Below are positions 1-9,000 of a stretch of 64,000 bases of DNA, one piece after another (the stretch's first letter is position 1; each line of letters begins with the position of its first letter). Location of the stretch: positions 1-64,000 of the forward strand of contig CAMTVO010000020.1 in NCBI GenBank assembly GCA_947085205.1, written 5' to 3'. Origin of the DNA: an uncultured Nitrospiraceae bacterium. GTDB taxonomy: Bacteria; Nitrospirota; Thermodesulfovibrionia; Thermodesulfovibrionales; Dissulfurispiraceae. The position numbers are program-made.

Positions 1-3000
1 GAGTTTGTCATTCCCACGAAAGTGGGAATCCAGGGTTTCCCGTGAAAACGGGAACCTAATTCCTTTGTATAGTTCCCCGCTTTTGCGGGGACAAGTCTGG
101 ATTCCCGTTTGCACGGGAATGACGACTTTTGCAAGAGCCTCTAAGTATTCCTCTGAAAGGAAGGACTCGATTGAGTCCTTCCTTTTTCTGCCCCCTTTTA
201 CCCCTCCATAAAATCCATCACATCAACATGAAAATGCTTCGCTATCATTTTAAAATGCTTGTCGTGATGTAGCAATGAGCATCCAGAAGACAGACTCGGG
301 TTTGTTGTGTTAACTTAACAAAGACAAATACCTAAATTCCCCGATTAAGCATGCCCTCTGGATTCCCCGATTAAATCGGGGAATGACAAGGGGGTCGGGG
401 AATGACAAAATAGCGAATCAGTCATTCTCTGGCTTGACCAGAGAATCCAGTTCCTTAAACTCAATGAACTGAACATGTCATCTATTGTCTGTTTTTGTCT
501 GTTCTCTGTTCACTGTTTTTCAGCTTCCCCATCTTTTAAACAACTCATGCTCCACTCCAAAACTGTCCAGTATCTTTCCAACTATAAAATTCACAATGTC
601 ATCCAGGTTTTTCGGCTTGTGATAAAACGCAGGAACTGGAGGCGCTATTTTAACGCCAATCCGCGCAAGCTTCAGCATGTTTTCAAGGTGTATTGCACTG
701 AAAGGCATTTCGCGTGGAGAAAGAAGAAGTGGTCTCCCTTCTTTTATAGTTACATCAGCAGCCCTCTCAATGAGATTGTTTGCGTATCCATTGGCAATGC
801 CGGAAAGGGTTTTCATGGAGCACGGCACTGCAAGCATTCCGTCTGTTTTAAACGAGCCGCTTGCAACAGGAGCGTACATCTGTTTGTCTTCATAAAAAAA
901 GAGCCTGTCGGTGTTAAAATGCTTTCTGATGATCTCTTCAGTTCTTAAACTCCGAACTCCGAACTCCGAACTCTCAACTTGGGGTGACCAGTCAAGGCCT
1001 GTCTCATCTTTAATTATTGAGAATGTATTTGCCGATATTGCAAGATGAACCTCTGCAACTTTAAGGAGTTCTTCGAGCAATCTCATGCCGAATATTGAAC
1101 CGCTTGCTCCGGTTATAGCAAGGATATATCTTTTCATGATTTTTATTATACTCCCACATTCAACCTTGAAGTGCAACACCGAAAGATGAAGCGACCTCAA
1201 ACGGTGTTTTGTAACCCAGACATTTTCTGGGTCTCTGGTTAATAAGAGACTCTATGCGAGTCATTCGGGTTTATTGTGTTTATTGTGTTTATCGGGTTTA
1301 TTGTGTTAACTCAATAACTTAACAGAGCAACTATATCCTTTCTTCGACTCTTCGAGATTATGAACCATCTCCGCGCCTATGAGGAATATGCATGAAGAAT
1401 AATATACCCACAGCAGGAATATCACGAAGGCTGAAAGAGGGCCGTAGATGGTTCCCAATTTTACGACCTTCACGACATAGAGCGTAAAGAGATGCTTTGC
1501 AGCCTCAAGAAAAACGGCTGTGAATAATGCGCCTGACAGTGCGTAATTAAGTCTTATCCGTTTTTTAGGCAGGAAGATATAAAGGGTAGTAACAGTAAGG
1601 AAAATAAGTATCAGCGGCACTATAAACCTTATCAAAAAGCCGGTTATTTTTCCGAGTTTCAGTCCCGGGAAAAATTCCTGAAGCGCTTTTAGCATGGGGG
1701 TTGCCGTTGTCATTCCGAAGGATGCGAGTATAAAGGCGATTATAAGAGTGATGATGAAAAGTGAGAGTATAAGGGAGACGATAAAAGACCTTTTAACCCT
1801 TGTCTTAAAAATGACATTTATTGCTGTTTCAAGCGATGAAAATAGCTGATACGACAATACAGCATAAAGGATTACGGTGAACTGGCCTATTCCTTTGTAG
1901 GATATTATCTTTCTAAGTTCATCGGTTATTTCGTATGTAATCTTAGGAAAAAAGCCCACAAGCTTTGATGTAAAGAACCTGAGCAGTTCTTCGTTTCCGC
2001 CGAGGAAGTGGCCGAATATGGTTACGAGCAGCAGGCAGAACGGGATAATGGCCATCATGGTAAAGTAAGAGATGGAGCCTGCGAGCATAAGCCCTCCGTC
2101 CCTGAAAAAATCCACAAAACCCCTTAATATTGCCGTTATATATCGCATAATTCAAAATACCTTGCCAATCTTAACTACACGAGTTATGCACCGTTTACCT
2201 TTTCAGCATGGCAAATCGTTAATTATATTACACCATCTGTGAAAGTATACGCATTGAGCGGTTGGCTTGAAGCAAGTATGTATATACCGTCTAAAAAAAC
2301 TATACAGCAAACCCTGTTGTCAATAAACCAAGTATTTTCAAGGTCTGCAGGCCATTAACCGCATCAAAACCGTCACCGGACTGTGTATTTAAAAAATATA
2401 CACTTTTTTGCGTCCATAGGTGTAAAATAGTGTGGATTAAGGCTTTTATTTCTGGCATCGATATTGCATATATCTAATTACAATTTTAGAAAGGGGGGCG
2501 TTATGGAGAAGCAGCGGATACTGGTTGTTGACGATGACCCTGTTATATGCCTTAGCTGTAAGAGGATACTGGGTGCAGAGGGGTTTACGGTATTTACTGT
2601 AGAGGACGGAGAAGGAGCCATTGAGAAGATCTCAAGGGAGGAGTTCGACCTTGTGATAACCGACATAAGGCTTCCTGATATTTACGGGCTCACTGTTGTG
2701 CAGGAGGCAAAGACTATACAGCCTAAGGCTGATGTTGTGGTTATTACAGGCTATCCTTCTCTGGAGGATGCAAAGGAATCCATAAGGCTTGGCGCCTTTG
2801 AATACCTTGAAAAGCCTTTTACGCCTGACTTTATGATGAATGTTGCTAAAAAGGTCTTTGATAAAAAGGGTTGGATACTGAGGAAGGCATATATTGACCA
2901 GTTCAGGGATTATGTCATCCCTGCATCGGCGATGGATAACCTTACTGTTTATTACAAAGATGGGACATGGGCGCGGCCTATGAAAGACGGTGCGTGGGAG

Positions 3001-6000: not shown

Positions 6001-9000
6001 GCAAGGAAGGCGACATGGAGCTTCTTCAGGATATGTCCAGAGACATCATAGCCACATCACTCTGCGGCCTGGGACAGACAGCGCCTAATCCTGTCCTTAC
6101 AACAATCAAGCATTTCAGGGACGAGTACGAATCACACATAAAAGAGGGCTGGTGCAAGACAGGCGTATGCAAAGACCTCTGCACATTCTACATCGATGAA
6201 AAGAAGTGCAAGGCATGCGGGGTATGCAAGAGGGTATGTCCTGAGAATGCAATATCAGGAAAAAAGAAAGTGCCGCACCGCATTAAGCAGGAACTCTGCA
6301 TACAGTGCCGCTCATGCTACGAGGCATGTAAGTTCGATTCCGTAAAGATAGGGCCGAGGAGCATGAGGGAAAAGCTCATGGAAAAAACGGATCAGGAAGC
6401 GCTCAAAGAGATTCAAATAACGGCTATGGCAGGGAAGGAGGAGTAAGAAATGCCAAAAGATATAATAATAGAGCTTACGATAAACGGAAAGACTATAAAG
6501 GCTGAGCCGGGAACTACAATACTTCAGGCAGCCCGGAAAAACGATATTTATATACCGAACATGTGTTATGACAAGAGGCTGAAGCCTTACGGCGGCTGCA
6601 GGCTTTGCGTTGTCGAGGTCGAAGGGCAGCCGAGGCTCTTTGCTGCATGTTCAACGCCTGTGGCAGAAGGAATGGCTGTCCAGACAGAGACGCCGAAACT
6701 GACAAAGGCAAGAAGGCTTGTCCTTGAGCTCCTCCTTGTCCATCATCCCCTTGACTGTCCTGTATGCGACAAGGCAGGCGAGTGTGACCTTCAGGACCTT
6801 GCCTTTAAATACGGGCCGTCCCAGAGCAGGTTTTTTGCTGAAAGAAAGCACGACCCGGAGAGGATTGATGCGCCCATTGTCGAAAGAAATCCGAACAGAT
6901 GTATTTTGTGCGGAAAGTGCGTGAGGGTTTGTGGCGAGCATCAAGGTGTTGGCGCAATAAACCTCATAGGAAGGGGCTTCAAAACTAAGGTGAGCCCTGC
7001 ATTTGAAGAGACTTTAAACTGCGAGTTCTGCGGCCAGTGCATAGACGCATGCCCTGTAGGATCTCTTGGAGCAAAACCTTACAGGTTCCGTTCAAGGGTA
7101 TGGTATATGGACGAATACGAGACCATCTGTCCTTATTGCGGATGCGGATGTACAACGAATGTAAGCATCAGGGAAGGAAGGATAATCAGGGCAAGGGGGA
7201 AAGAGGATGTAGGGATAAATGAAGGAAACCTCTGCAGCAAGGGCAGGTTCGGCTTTGATTATATATATTCAGAAAACAGGCTCACAACTCCGATGATTAA
7301 AAAGAACGGCACACTGGTGCCTGCATCGTGGGAAGAGGCGCTTGAGTATGTCGCAAAGAGGCTCGAATCCGTAAAGGAGCAGTACGGGGCATCGGCTATC
7401 GGCGCCATAGGTTCGCAGAGGTGCACAATGGAAGACAACTATATGCTCCAGAAGTTCATGAGAGAAGTTATAGTCACCGATAACATAGACTCTGCAGCAA
7501 GATTTGGCTATGCAAAGGCGCAAAAGGCCATGCAAAAGGCATTCGGTGCAGACTCCATGCCGATAAAGTGGAAGTCGCCTCTTGATGCTGATTTTATGCT
7601 GGTGGTGGAATCAGACATAACATCGACCCTCCCTGTATGGGGATTGAATTTCATCAAGGCAAGGAATGACGGTGCAAATCTTGTAGTTGCAGATGCAAAA
7701 GAGACAAAGCTTGCAAGAAACAGCACCAAGTGGCTGAGGATAAAACCCGGCTCGGGCACGGTCCTTTTAAACGGAATCGCAAAGGTTATTATCGACGAAG
7801 GGCTATACAATAAGGATAAAGCAGCGTCAATACCGAACTTCGATTCGCTTGTCAGCGGCCTGAAGGAATTTACAATATCGGCTGTATCAAAGATTACCGA
7901 CGTTCCTGAGGCCGAGGTTGTGAACCTTGCAAAGTCTTACGCCTCTTCTCAAAAACGCCTTATAGCCCTCACCTCAAACGCTTCGGAAAATACAAAGAGC
8001 ATAAATACGCTCCTTGCTGCTGCAAACCTCGCCCTGCTTATGGGTGACGGCCCTGACACCATCCAGATACCTGCCGAGTTTTCAAATACCCTCGGCATGT
8101 GGATGGTTGGCGTCAGACCGCTCTCAGACGGAAAGGATGTCTATCAGATGTTTTATGAATCAGGCAATATAAAGGCCCTCTACATAATGGGTGAGAATCC
8201 ACTTATAACATTTCAGGATGCATCAAAGGTTGAAAAGACACTGAAAGGTTTTGAACTGCTCATAGTTCAGGATATATTCCTTACCGAAACAGCAAAGCTT
8301 GCTGATGTTGTCCTCCCTGCATGCAGTTGGGCTGAGAAGGAAGGGACATTTATGGCAGCCACCGGCAATATTCAGAAAATACCGAAACTCATATCCGAGA
8401 CGGGCCAGTCCATTCCTGACTGGAAGATATTCAGGAATCTTGCGAGGGTTATGAACAAAGACCTCGGATTGAAAGAACTCATGGGTATAAAGGCATCAAT
8501 CGCTGATATTGTTGTTGCGGAAGAGACAAAGGAGATTTATCCATCATTTAATCCTGTCTCTTACGAGGTAATGGAGAGCGTGAGCGATGAGTATCCGATG
8601 TTCCTCGTTACTGCAAACATCCTGCAGCACTCAGGAGCGCTTTCAGTGCTCTCGAAAAACCTCGACTCCGTTGTCTCAGATGCATACCTTCAAATAAACA
8701 TACGGGATGCTAAGAAACATGATATCCACAACGAAGCCTTTGTGAAGGTTAAATCCAAGAGAGGAGAGGTCTATCTAAAGGCGATGCTTTCTGACGAGGT
8801 TCCTGAAGGAACAGTGTTTGCGCCTCTTCATTTTGCCCATGCAAAGATTAATACGCTGACATATCCTTCTGTAAACGGAGGCCTGCCTCTTGTAGCAGTA
8901 AAAATAGAGGCAGCGTAAGCGTAAGGGGGACTTCGTCCCCCTTACGAAAACCCCCTTATTGGTCTAATGTCATTACCCCATTCCCGCAATGCCTTCAAAA

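Follow-up and report, generated by a model that had tools for sequence, protein, structure and literature searches.

A five-gene operon in the genome of an uncultured Nitrospiraceae bacterium encodes a bifurcating-type redox module whose [2Fe-2S] subunit, BfuC (g781), carries an N-terminal receiver domain, and the operon opens with a second receiver fused to a GcvH-like domain (g780). We give roughly even odds to the reading that this module is an alternative head of complex I placed under one sensor kinase at two levels. The window analysed is a stretch of 64,000 nucleotides. The first-pass annotation had located the five genes correctly, all on the + strand (Table 1).

Table 1 Features of the operon and its surroundings.
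Feature	Position	Strand	Basis
Half of probable upstream activator site, distal copy	2295..2306	+	direct repeat with 2391-2402, spacing 96
Palindrome TGTAT-N9-ATACA, probable sigma-54 activator binding site	2384..2402	.	sequence, relatives
Sigma-54 (-24/-12) promoter motif	2453..2468	+	sequence
g780: receiver (D54) + GcvH-like domain, lipoyl lysine absent, 254 aa	2503..3267	+	Pfam, alignment, model
g781: receiver (D53) + BfuC/HydC/NuoE [2Fe-2S] subunit, 285 aa	3280..4137	+	Pfam, alignment, model
Thioredoxin-like ferredoxin-fold subunit, three Cys, 127 aa	4171..4554	+	
BfuB/HydB flavoprotein, B1-B5 cluster ligands, 627 aa	4563..6446	+	alignment to 7t2r_B
BfuA (g784), NuoG/FdhA-like with five Fe-S motifs and lacking a Mo/W ligand, 822 aa	6450..8918	+	
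Hairpin, perfect 12-bp, directly 3' of BfuA	8920..8946	+	shuffle test
PAS-GAF-GAF protein, downstream neighbour	9061..10626	+	Pfam, neighbourhood comparison
FdhD sulfurtransferase, downstream neighbour	10553..11353	+	profile match, neighbourhood comparison

Two receiver fusions at the head of the operon

The domain composition reported for both fusions was reproduced. In g781, Pfam places Response_reg at residues 5-113 and 2Fe-2S_thioredx at 143-285. The acceptor Asp and the four Fe-S cysteines, previously described as conserved, are invariant: D9, D10, D53, T81 and K103 together with C212, C217, C253 and C257 are kept in all 119 best homologues. Both g780 and g781 possess the full canonical receiver set of acidic pair, acceptor Asp, Thr/Ser and Lys. 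Full-length fusions were found in 83 of 121 Thermodesulfovibrionales genomes and in 8 of the 11 other Dissulfurispiraceae genomes. The family is frequent in this order, whose members are anaerobes of the sulfur cycle. The earlier counts of 21/31 and 11/12 came from other genome samples. The solved chains closest to the NuoE part are HydC of Acetomicrobium mobile and of T. kivui type (7t2r_C, 8a6t_C), but solved HydC chains are 154-189 aa long and receiver-free. No description of a receiver-NuoE fusion was found in the literature searched, which covered few subscription papers. A repeated origin of the fusion was considered and set aside, as a quick tree gave six label changes of which strongly supported branches force only one. 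A 578-aa top match (P0241), a candidate for a natural g780-g781 fusion, consists of two receiver-NuoE units instead.

For g780, Response_reg spans residues 6-113 (E 2e-26) and GCV_H residues 150-245, the latter match being weak yet above threshold (24.2 bits versus a cut-off of 22.2). Among 120 homologues, D10/D11 are kept in 117, D54 in 118 and K104 in all, and the misses are alignment gaps. Structures of GcvH in the PDB are matched at E 0.001. In the fold search, solved receivers were matched at an rmsd of ~1-2 Å and were the only proteins among the matches listed, and an Atlas search with the GcvH-like domain returned only GcvH leads, below 0.9. The resemblance of residues 150-245 to GcvH (PF01597) and lipoate-binding GcvH-like proteins is one of fold. 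Unlike GcvH, g780 has a receiver attached and, as noted earlier, lacks the lipoyl lysine: the aligned position is G206, which is Gly in 114 of 120 homologues and Lys in none (Lys follows one residue later in 47). Because this lysine is missing, g780 cannot be a lipoyl carrier; it might instead serve as a protein-binding adaptor on the head, with the H-protein fold as docking module.

Full-length g780 is present in 66 of the 121 genomes of the order. At the level of the phylum, 15 of 151 genomes have a g780-type protein, every one in Thermodesulfovibrionia. The gene order is looser than earlier stated: g780 lies immediately 5' of g781 in 44 of the 83 fusion genomes and within 3.5 kb in 12, is elsewhere in 7 and was not found in 20.

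A bifurcating-type core and its candidate partners

A bifurcating-type architecture had been proposed, and it is supported by all sequence features open to testing. BfuB has an FMN domain and aligns without gaps to A. mobile HydB (7t2r_B; 840 bits). The five B2 ligands (C438/T476/H525/C531/C536) align with those of this protein, the conserved His included, and the Thr variant of the B2 cluster is reported to be common (PMC9304861, section 6). Across 47 BfuB orthologues, B2 ligands are kept in 46, B1 and B5 ligands in all, and B3/B4 ligands in 45. With regard to the Losey criteria, A/E232 plus M234 corresponds to AFM 202-204 and GGPSG lies at 397-401, each in 42 of 47 orthologues. The Losey Phe (T. 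maritima HydB 367), whose mapping is uncertain, would be F282 if it equals the Nqo1 Tyr site; the other candidate position holds Tyr in BfuB, a residue also present in chain 7q4v_B of a bifurcating HydB. The thioredoxin-like subunit, which has a gene of its own in 16 of 20 loci, we take to be HndB/HydD-like.

As in the Bfu family, BfuC has the C1 [2Fe-2S] cluster and BfuA the N-terminal Fe-S domains. BfuA scores above the NuoG cut-off (TIGR01973; 474.7 versus 470.05) and below that for Fdh-alpha (465 versus 666). The reported lack of a Mo-ligand Cys/Sec was borne out: Gly-Tyr-type residues replace the Sec/Cys-His pair in all 21 aligned orthologues, and the RGQNN motif, which goes with this pair in type 1 Fdh-Bfu and FdhA, is replaced in all 21 as well, while the genome's own Sec-FdhA keeps both. 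BfuA has no H-cluster domain, and PF02906 was not found in the genome, which is 89.7% complete. Judged by its architecture, the module may carry out coupled NAD(H)/ferredoxin bifurcation. A candidate NuoG-specific docking motif was dropped, since a formate dehydrogenase has a similar stretch.

Among the nearest described systems is Nuo-Bfu, a predicted bifurcating complex I with BfuB in clades 38/39, of which clade 39 lists Nitrospirae (Schut et al. 2022, PMC9304861) and may include these very genes; neither "response regulator" nor "kinase" occurs in the main text of that paper. Both share a BfuBC core with B1-B5 and C1 and a type 3 BfuA without catalytic site. In contrast to Nuo-Bfu, the present module has a receiver on BfuC, a receiver-GcvH-like protein, a separate thioredoxin-like subunit and its own sigma-54 operon, and in most fusion genomes (61 of 83) canonical NuoEFG is present as well. 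For the canonical-NuoE count, G018, G029 and G050 were set aside from the 75 matches; their matches (E 1e-31 to 1e-34) adjoin distant NuoCD-like genes. Among solved structures, BfuB and BfuC match best those of NiFe-HydABCSL of A. mobile, whose A subunit is likewise a non-catalytic NuoG-like protein, and of FeFe-HydABC/Hnd; unlike these, the module has neither an H-cluster domain nor HydSL genes.

The module had been regarded as cytoplasmic, with no partner named; the gene context of relatives points to complex I. In genome G036, the stretch from nuoD to nuoH holds the HAMP kinase described below, a receiver, REC-BfuC, Fd, BfuB, BfuA and a DRTGG/kinase/PHP/HATPase cassette. These orthologues occupy the nuoEFG slot, so that bfuABC replaces nuoEFG within the nuo cluster as defined for Nuo-Bfu; no canonical NuoE was found in G036, and its BfuA falls in the g784 clade with a support of 99. 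Accessory kinase/PHP/HATPase genes are likewise present in a Halanaerobium hydrogenase operon, according to PMC4237134. In G027 the same set lies between nuoD and canonical nuoE, and in G105, G075, G115, G042 and G100 it is arranged divergently to an operon where nuoH follows straight after nuoD. Overall, nuoD is on the same contig at a distance of up to 17.4 kb in 20 of 83 fusion genomes; the other 63, many of them fragmented, show no physical nuoD link. In the present genome the operon does not replace nuoEFG. The complex I genes are not close to it and include a separate NuoEFG set on a different contig (C59). Across the order, complex I genes often occur with neither head (in family f10, NuoD in 11/11, canonical NuoE and the fusion in none), and a headless nuo operon therefore does not demand a Bfu head. 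A second NuoD (C28) was rejected as a dock, since its operon is nuo-like but rearranged and has a molybdopterin enzyme of its own at the head.

We propose that the module would form a four-subunit BfuABC(D)/HndABC-type head for NADH plus ferredoxin input to complex I. BfuA would dock on NuoCD/I in the place of NuoG and pass electrons to quinone, a step that we consider probable from the gene context. The module thereby offers a test case for the predicted Nuo-Bfu complex. The alternative that a soluble Bfu core pairs in trans, most likely with the Sec formate dehydrogenase (resembling the G. acidurici type 3 Fdh-Bfu) or else with NfnB, appears quite improbable. It is favored by FdhD downstream of the operon here and in G006, G054, G106, G116, G086 and G065, by a Sec-FdhA beside Fhs with no adjacent NuoEF in this genome, by NfnAB inserted in three loci (L045, L052, L064) and by the fusion of BfuB with an NfnB/GltD domain in G049. 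However, Sec-FdhA has its own unfused NuoE-NuoF in all five close relatives examined, the FdhD adjacency is limited to Dissulfurispiraceae among the loci compared, in six families orthologues of the module are located within nuo operons or next to them, and no [FeFe] hydrogenase was found in the genome. A cytoplasmic NiFe hydrogenase (C32) was also rejected as partner, having its own small and flavin-type partner genes.

Promoter, kinase and the shared receiver motif

Bfu enzymes are known to be controlled through gene expression. The sigma-54 type site described upstream of g780 was recovered; of 25 distinct regions upstream of g780 genes, 16 contain a strict motif, versus 0.6% of shuffles. 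Palindromes related to the one at 2384..2402 (TGT-N13-ACA) are present in five of seven upstream regions inspected in relatives, with copies at the same 96 spacing in G054, G043 and G105; the sequence is probably bound by a sigma-54 activator.

The statement that the operon contains no kinase holds within the window but not among relatives, where one HAMP kinase co-occurs with the fusion. Both are present in 80 of the 121 genomes of the order, neither in 34, and 7 are discordant, counts that overstate the association because kin genomes are not independent. Of the 82 further genomes with the fusion, 80 have the kinase; in this assembly, which is incomplete as stated above, no match was obtained for it, for the sigma-54 activator orthologue or for the accessory cassette. 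A helix-1 motif, S[CA]x[RK]xL, is shared by 41 of 49 g781 receivers, 29 of 32 g780 receivers, 23 of 24 single receivers and 9 of 10 activators, and only two of the 42 receivers of this genome, g780 and g781, have it. Duplication alone may account for the motif. We infer that the kinase very probably phosphorylates the sigma-54 activator, which would switch the operon on, and also g780, g781 and the single-domain receiver.

Loss of this system bears on a further possibility, that the fused receiver is a passenger or structural domain left by an old gene fusion and that phosphorylation is irrelevant. The acceptor Asp is missing from four of 55 distinct fused copies (G065, G083 and second copies in G042 and G075), and closely related receiver-free BfuC proteins exist, in agreement with the remark that a few relatives have NuoE without a receiver. 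The passenger idea is nevertheless highly improbable given the Asp in the remaining 51 copies and the invariant acceptor and switch residues of the best homologues. In G065 (99% complete, 6 contigs), moreover, receiver decay and loss of the kinase system go together: Asp, Thr and Lys are gone from the fused receiver, which shows 29% identity versus 70% for the NuoE part, and no match was found there for kinase, activator orthologue, g780 or Ser/Thr kinase. This co-loss rests on one clean genome because G083 is mixed, with a dead fused receiver, yet intact g780 and single receiver and possibly a short kinase.

Possible consequences of receiver phosphorylation

Direct two-component control of the redox complex had been suggested. 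Kinase co-occurrence, the helix-1 motif and G065 support a working two-component system; the direct part was not supported by the AlphaFold model of g781, in which the linker (125-133) has pLDDT <50, pTM is 0.49 and no fixed receiver-NuoE packing or interface is seen. Phosphorylation of the BfuC receiver could, with about equal chances either way, change the activity, assembly or docking of the head, and a new contact or receiver pairing would be a likelier route than a rigid allosteric path.

A serious rival, in our view unlikely, leaves the enzyme itself unswitched and casts the fused receivers as phosphate sinks or reporters. As products of the operon, they would either draw phosphate away from the shared kinase, a negative feedback that damps the sigma-54 activator, or signal module abundance or redox state back to the kinase. 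The motif common to all four receivers and the low-confidence linker without predicted packing fit this idea. So does the kinase of Dissulfurispiraceae, a 377-aa protein with almost no periplasmic domain (matches start at about residue 200 of the long form), whose input may therefore be cytoplasmic. However, a sink requires no fusion, and a free single-domain receiver with the same helix-1 motif already sits in the cluster of relatives; receiver-NuoE fusions are spread over 13 or more clusters at 50% identity; and the linker and output domain of g780 are conserved. Receivers acting only as sinks would be an unusual feedback design of narrower interest.

In A. mobile NiFe-HydABCSL (7T2R; Feng et al. 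2022, PMC8880783), bifurcation is gated by a [2Fe-2S] domain of the BfuC-type subunit that moves. If phosphorylation does act on the head, the receiver on BfuC would be a direct handle on this gating step and a ready probe of the still debated bifurcation mechanism. The arrangement suggests that a sensor kinase may decide electron entry into respiration. An extended version, which we consider rather unlikely, has the kinase swap NADH-only NuoEFG and NADH-plus-ferredoxin BfuABC on one complex I body post-translationally: phosphorylated BfuC would engage or gate the bifurcating head, and g780 would act on the NuoG-type subunit or canonical head. Consistent with such a swap, g780 is present in 55 of 61 fusion genomes with canonical NuoE versus 8 of 22 without it, and lies directly 3' of canonical nuoEFG in five loci of four genomes; family f9 contradicts it, with g780 in 5/6 and canonical NuoE in 0/6. 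If true, it would mean phosphorylation control of both electron bifurcation and complex I composition.

A receiver tied to complex-I-type machinery is also found in the other nearest system, MSMEG_2064/Rv3143, a receiver subunit of mycobacterial complex I and proposed phosphorylation modulator (PMC10068793, PMC9274095). That protein is a free orphan receiver near NuoB/A/C/I with no known kinase, whereas the g781 receiver is covalently attached to the NuoE-type subunit of a bifurcating-type head with a candidate kinase at hand.

Downstream of the operon, the PAS-GAF-GAF neighbor, only possibly linked to the redox module, occurs mostly in Dissulfurispiraceae among the loci compared. No RNA holder is listed for 2150-8918. 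The hairpin behind BfuA (z -3.7; none of 200 shuffles equally stable) has no T-run and is therefore not a textbook terminator; it may end or protect the transcript, and four similar copies occur in the genome.

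Architecture and identity of the module

A first-pass annotation had described an operon headed by two receiver fusions, the second of them on a NuoE subunit. The coordinates of its five genes and their domain content bear out this layout, and a domain search recovered both domains of g781. The acidic pair, acceptor Asp, Thr/Ser and Lys are kept in 119/119 best homologues of the g781 receiver and in 117-120 of the 120 best homologues of the g780 receiver, the misses being gaps. The GcvH-like domain of g780 lacks the lipoyl lysine, as had been claimed: G206 aligns with this residue of solved GcvH proteins, and the position is Gly in 114/120 homologues and Lys in none, which rules out a lipoyl carrier. 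One residue further on, Lys occurs in 47/120 homologues and Asn in g780 itself. Automatic annotation already names both domains. A helix-1 Cys adjoining the phosphorylation pocket is kept in 119/119 g781 and 113/120 g780 homologues; thiol sensing by it is only a guess.

Features of the operon, its surroundings and related loci (positions are in the window unless a contig or locus is named)
Feature	Position	Strand	Description
Sigma-54 motif	2453-2468		upstream of g780
g780	2503-3267	+	receiver and weakly scoring GcvH-like domain
g781	3280-4137	+	receiver and NuoE-type (BfuC) [2Fe-2S] domain
Helix-1 Cys	2503-2560, 3280-3340		in the receivers of g780 and g781
Third gene, after g781		+	thioredoxin-like protein, 127 aa, three Cys
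Fourth gene (BfuB)		+	NuoF/HydB flavoprotein, 627 aa
Fifth gene (g784, BfuA)		+	NuoG/FdhA-like protein, 822 aa
Hairpin	8920-8946		perfect, 12 bp
PAS-GAF-GAF protein	9061-10626		CxxC...HxxCxxC stretch between PAS and GAF; without output domain
Long gene run	15511-60407	+	TPR, CHAT-like, WD40, caspase-like, CsgG-like and transglutaminase-like proteins, adenylate cyclase (labels by eye)
Source genome, C22 (L003)	9511-12259		formate dehydrogenase with TGA read as Sec, adjoining Fhs
Source genome, C28	12091-26439		rearranged complex-I-like operon headed by molybdopterin enzyme and 4Fe-4S subunit, then nuoB, D, I, A, C, H, J, K, two antiporter-like genes, M, N
Source genome, C51 (L001)	29-9470		CooS-type CO dehydrogenase, NuoE, two tandem HydB-like NuoF genes, CBS protein, short NuoF-C-terminal ferredoxin, NuoG-like gene
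L045 (genome G049)	10189-13320		BfuB-NfnB/GltD-like flavoprotein fusion, 1044 aa

The Bfu family is defined, in the available text of Schut et al. (PMC9304861), by clusters B1-B5 and C1 with a His-ligated B2 cluster. Every one of these cluster ligands is present in the module, and each is retained by 45-47 of 47 orthologues. BfuB aligns without gaps to the bifurcating HydB of A. mobile (7t2r_B) at 840 bits, compared with 396 for Nqo1 of complex I, and two of the three residue criteria in the accessible part of Losey et al. (PMC7311640) hold, the third not being placeable with certainty. BfuA retains five Fe-S motifs and scores narrowly above the NuoG profile cut-off and below that for Fdh-alpha. 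Its reported lack of Cys/Sec at the Mo-ligand position was confirmed: the Sec/Cys-His pair and the RGQNN motif are gone in 21/21 orthologues and retained in the real Sec-FdhA of the source genome. Every Bfu feature testable by sequence is found in the module, which is predicted to be a Bfu core with a non-catalytic type 3 BfuA and to work like a type 3 Bfu. The Bfu ligands, together with the lost catalytic residues, argue for a core that would need a partner encoded elsewhere. The missing pair rules out a formate dehydrogenase, and domain content and a hydrogenase search of the source genome (89.7% complete) rule out an [FeFe] hydrogenase. The names of close homologues assign the source organism to Thermodesulfovibrionales (Nitrospirota), and its genome carries dsrAB.

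Distribution and candidate partners

Full-length copies of the fusion occur in 83 of the 121 order genomes (one copy ends at residue 249), and g780 is present in 66; in the phylum sample, g780 occurs in 15/151 genomes, every one within the same class. The gene order of the first-pass annotation is the commonest arrangement but no rule, with g780 immediately 5' of g781 in 44/83 fusion-bearing genomes. BfuB and BfuA come after g781 in 20/20 wide loci. At 50% identity, receiver-NuoE fusions are spread over at least 13 separate clusters. One HATPase-NuoE fusion was also seen; several origins of the receiver fusion are possible. Proteins P0241, P0245, P0302, P0333 and P0288 include tandem receiver-NuoE repeats (some of them lacking the Fe-S domain), an HATPase-NuoE fusion, and NuoG-like proteins with a C-terminal NuoE.

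The receiver-fused Bfu module is real and conserved, and apparently undescribed in the literature searched, where no description of a receiver-NuoE/BfuC or receiver-GcvH fusion was found. For receivers carried by respiratory enzymes, the nearest precedent seen comes from mycobacterial complex I: MSMEG_2064/Rv3143, a free orphan receiver described by its authors, in the text available, as unique to mycobacteria (PMC10068793, PMC9274095).

In several relatives the module lies among complex I genes. The order in G036 is nuoABCD, kinase, receiver, receiver-BfuC, ferredoxin, BfuB, BfuA, DRTGG, Ser/Thr kinase, DRTGG, PHP, HATPase, nuoHIJKLMN, and a search of this genome found no canonical NuoE. Its BfuA clusters with g784, separate from canonical NuoG (FastTree; 17 BfuA, one third of those found, 9 NuoG and 2 others). 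By gene position, the module of the source genome does not match Nuo-Bfu, whereas its G036 orthologue does. The cluster sits between nuoD and canonical nuoEFG in G027, and is divergent from a nuo operon where nuoH directly succeeds nuoD in G105, G075, G115, G042 and G100; in G086 and G065, from the source organism's family, the nuo operon lacks EFG and the module is located elsewhere. In total, nuoD lies at most 17.4 kb away on the same contig in 20/83 fusion-bearing genomes from six families, and no such link was found in the other 63, many of which have short contigs. Complex I of the source genome has its own NuoEFG (contig C59), and thus the module would supply a second head, or electron-input part; both heads occur in 61/83 fusion-bearing genomes. 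Family f10 counts against a complex I partner, since NuoD is present in 11/11 genomes and neither canonical head nor fusion was found.

Alternatively, the soluble Bfu core could pair with a formate dehydrogenase. FdhD lies downstream of the operon in seven genomes, all from the source organism's family, and the Sec-FdhA of the source genome has no partner genes beside it; however, that FdhA has its own NuoE-NuoF in 5/5 close relatives. NfnAB is inserted in three module loci, and an NfnB-type domain is fused to BfuB in one.

Signalling and proposed control

In relatives, the genes clustered with the module encode a HAMP histidine kinase, a sigma-54 activator and a single-domain receiver, along with a cassette of DRTGG, anti-sigma-type kinase, PHP and HATPase proteins; a comparable one flanks an [FeFe] hydrogenase operon of Halanaerobium in the available text of PMC4237134. 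The periplasmic part of the long kinase form contains CxxCH-type motifs, which may bind heme; the 377-aa form in the source organism's family has nearly no such part. Kinase and fusion are both present in 80 of the 121 order genomes, with neither found in 34 and discordance in 7, counts that ignore kinship among genomes.

Helix 1 of a receiver determines kinase specificity. One helix-1 motif is common to all four receivers of the system, and among the 42 receivers of the source genome only g780 and g781 have it. Helix-1 identity is 0.41-0.59 among the four versus 0.20-0.23 to other receivers, and the rest of the domain contrasts less (0.34-0.51 versus 0.28-0.33). This likeness could also come from common ancestry.

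Three fusion-bearing genomes gave no kinase match: the source genome (89.7% complete, receiver intact), G065 and G083. The kinase cluster of the source genome probably lies in sequence missing from the assembly; G054, G019 and others carry it on a contig other than that of the module. G065 (99% complete, 6 contigs) also gave no match for the activator orthologue, g780 or the Ser/Thr kinase. Its fused receiver no longer has the Asp, Thr and Lys, with the NuoE part 70% identical. G083 has a dead fused receiver, yet g780 and the single receiver are intact and a short kinase is possible, and it is therefore ambiguous as a case of co-loss. The acceptor Asp is kept in 51/55 distinct fused copies.

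The sigma-54 type site proposed upstream of g780 holds up, the motif recurring in 16/25 distinct g780 upstream regions versus 0.6% of shuffles. Also upstream of the operon, and present in relatives, are two TGT-N13-ACA-type sites ~96 nt apart.

Cofactor ligands, intact receivers, promoter and gene context are established by sequence. The best explanation, to which we give about an even chance, is that the module is an alternative complex I head under sensor-kinase control. The kinase would phosphorylate the sigma-54 activator, switching the operon on, and likewise g780, g781 and the single-domain receiver; BfuA would take the place of NuoG on complex I, and phosphorylated g781 would alter the head. 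In the accessible sections of Feng et al. (PMC8880783), the HydC C-terminal domain is mobile, with a possible role in gating low-potential electrons, and two HydC subunits are in contact within the dimer; a BfuC-type subunit would therefore be a good place for a receiver. AlphaFold models of g780 and g781 have confident domains, low-confidence linkers (pTM 0.49) and no fixed interface, and so may fit a switchable contact, receiver pairing or absence of control. Because such models also fit no control, the alternative that the fused receivers are a phosphate sink or provide feedback, the enzyme itself not being switched, keeps its weight as an unlikely but genuine rival to control of the head.

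The presence of g780 tracks the canonical head (55/61 fusion genomes with canonical NuoE versus 8/22 without), with family f9 as an exception, and g780 is directly 3' of canonical nuoEFG in 5 loci (G019, G005, G030, G115). This association and adjacency suggest that g780 may act on something common to both heads. That one kinase exchanges two complex I heads is doubtful.

Neighboring and related loci

At the C22 formate dehydrogenase, the NuoE-NuoF genes seen upstream of FdhA in 5/5 close relatives are absent, and the acetyl-CoA synthase family PF03598 had no match in the source assembly (89.7% complete). The C51 locus is a second, doubled Bfu-like module. In G049, nfnAB lies between g780 and g781, and G079 shares this layout. 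The gene for the PAS-GAF-GAF protein is 3' of the operon in the source organism's family and in G013, and the genome holds 4 copies similar to the hairpin.
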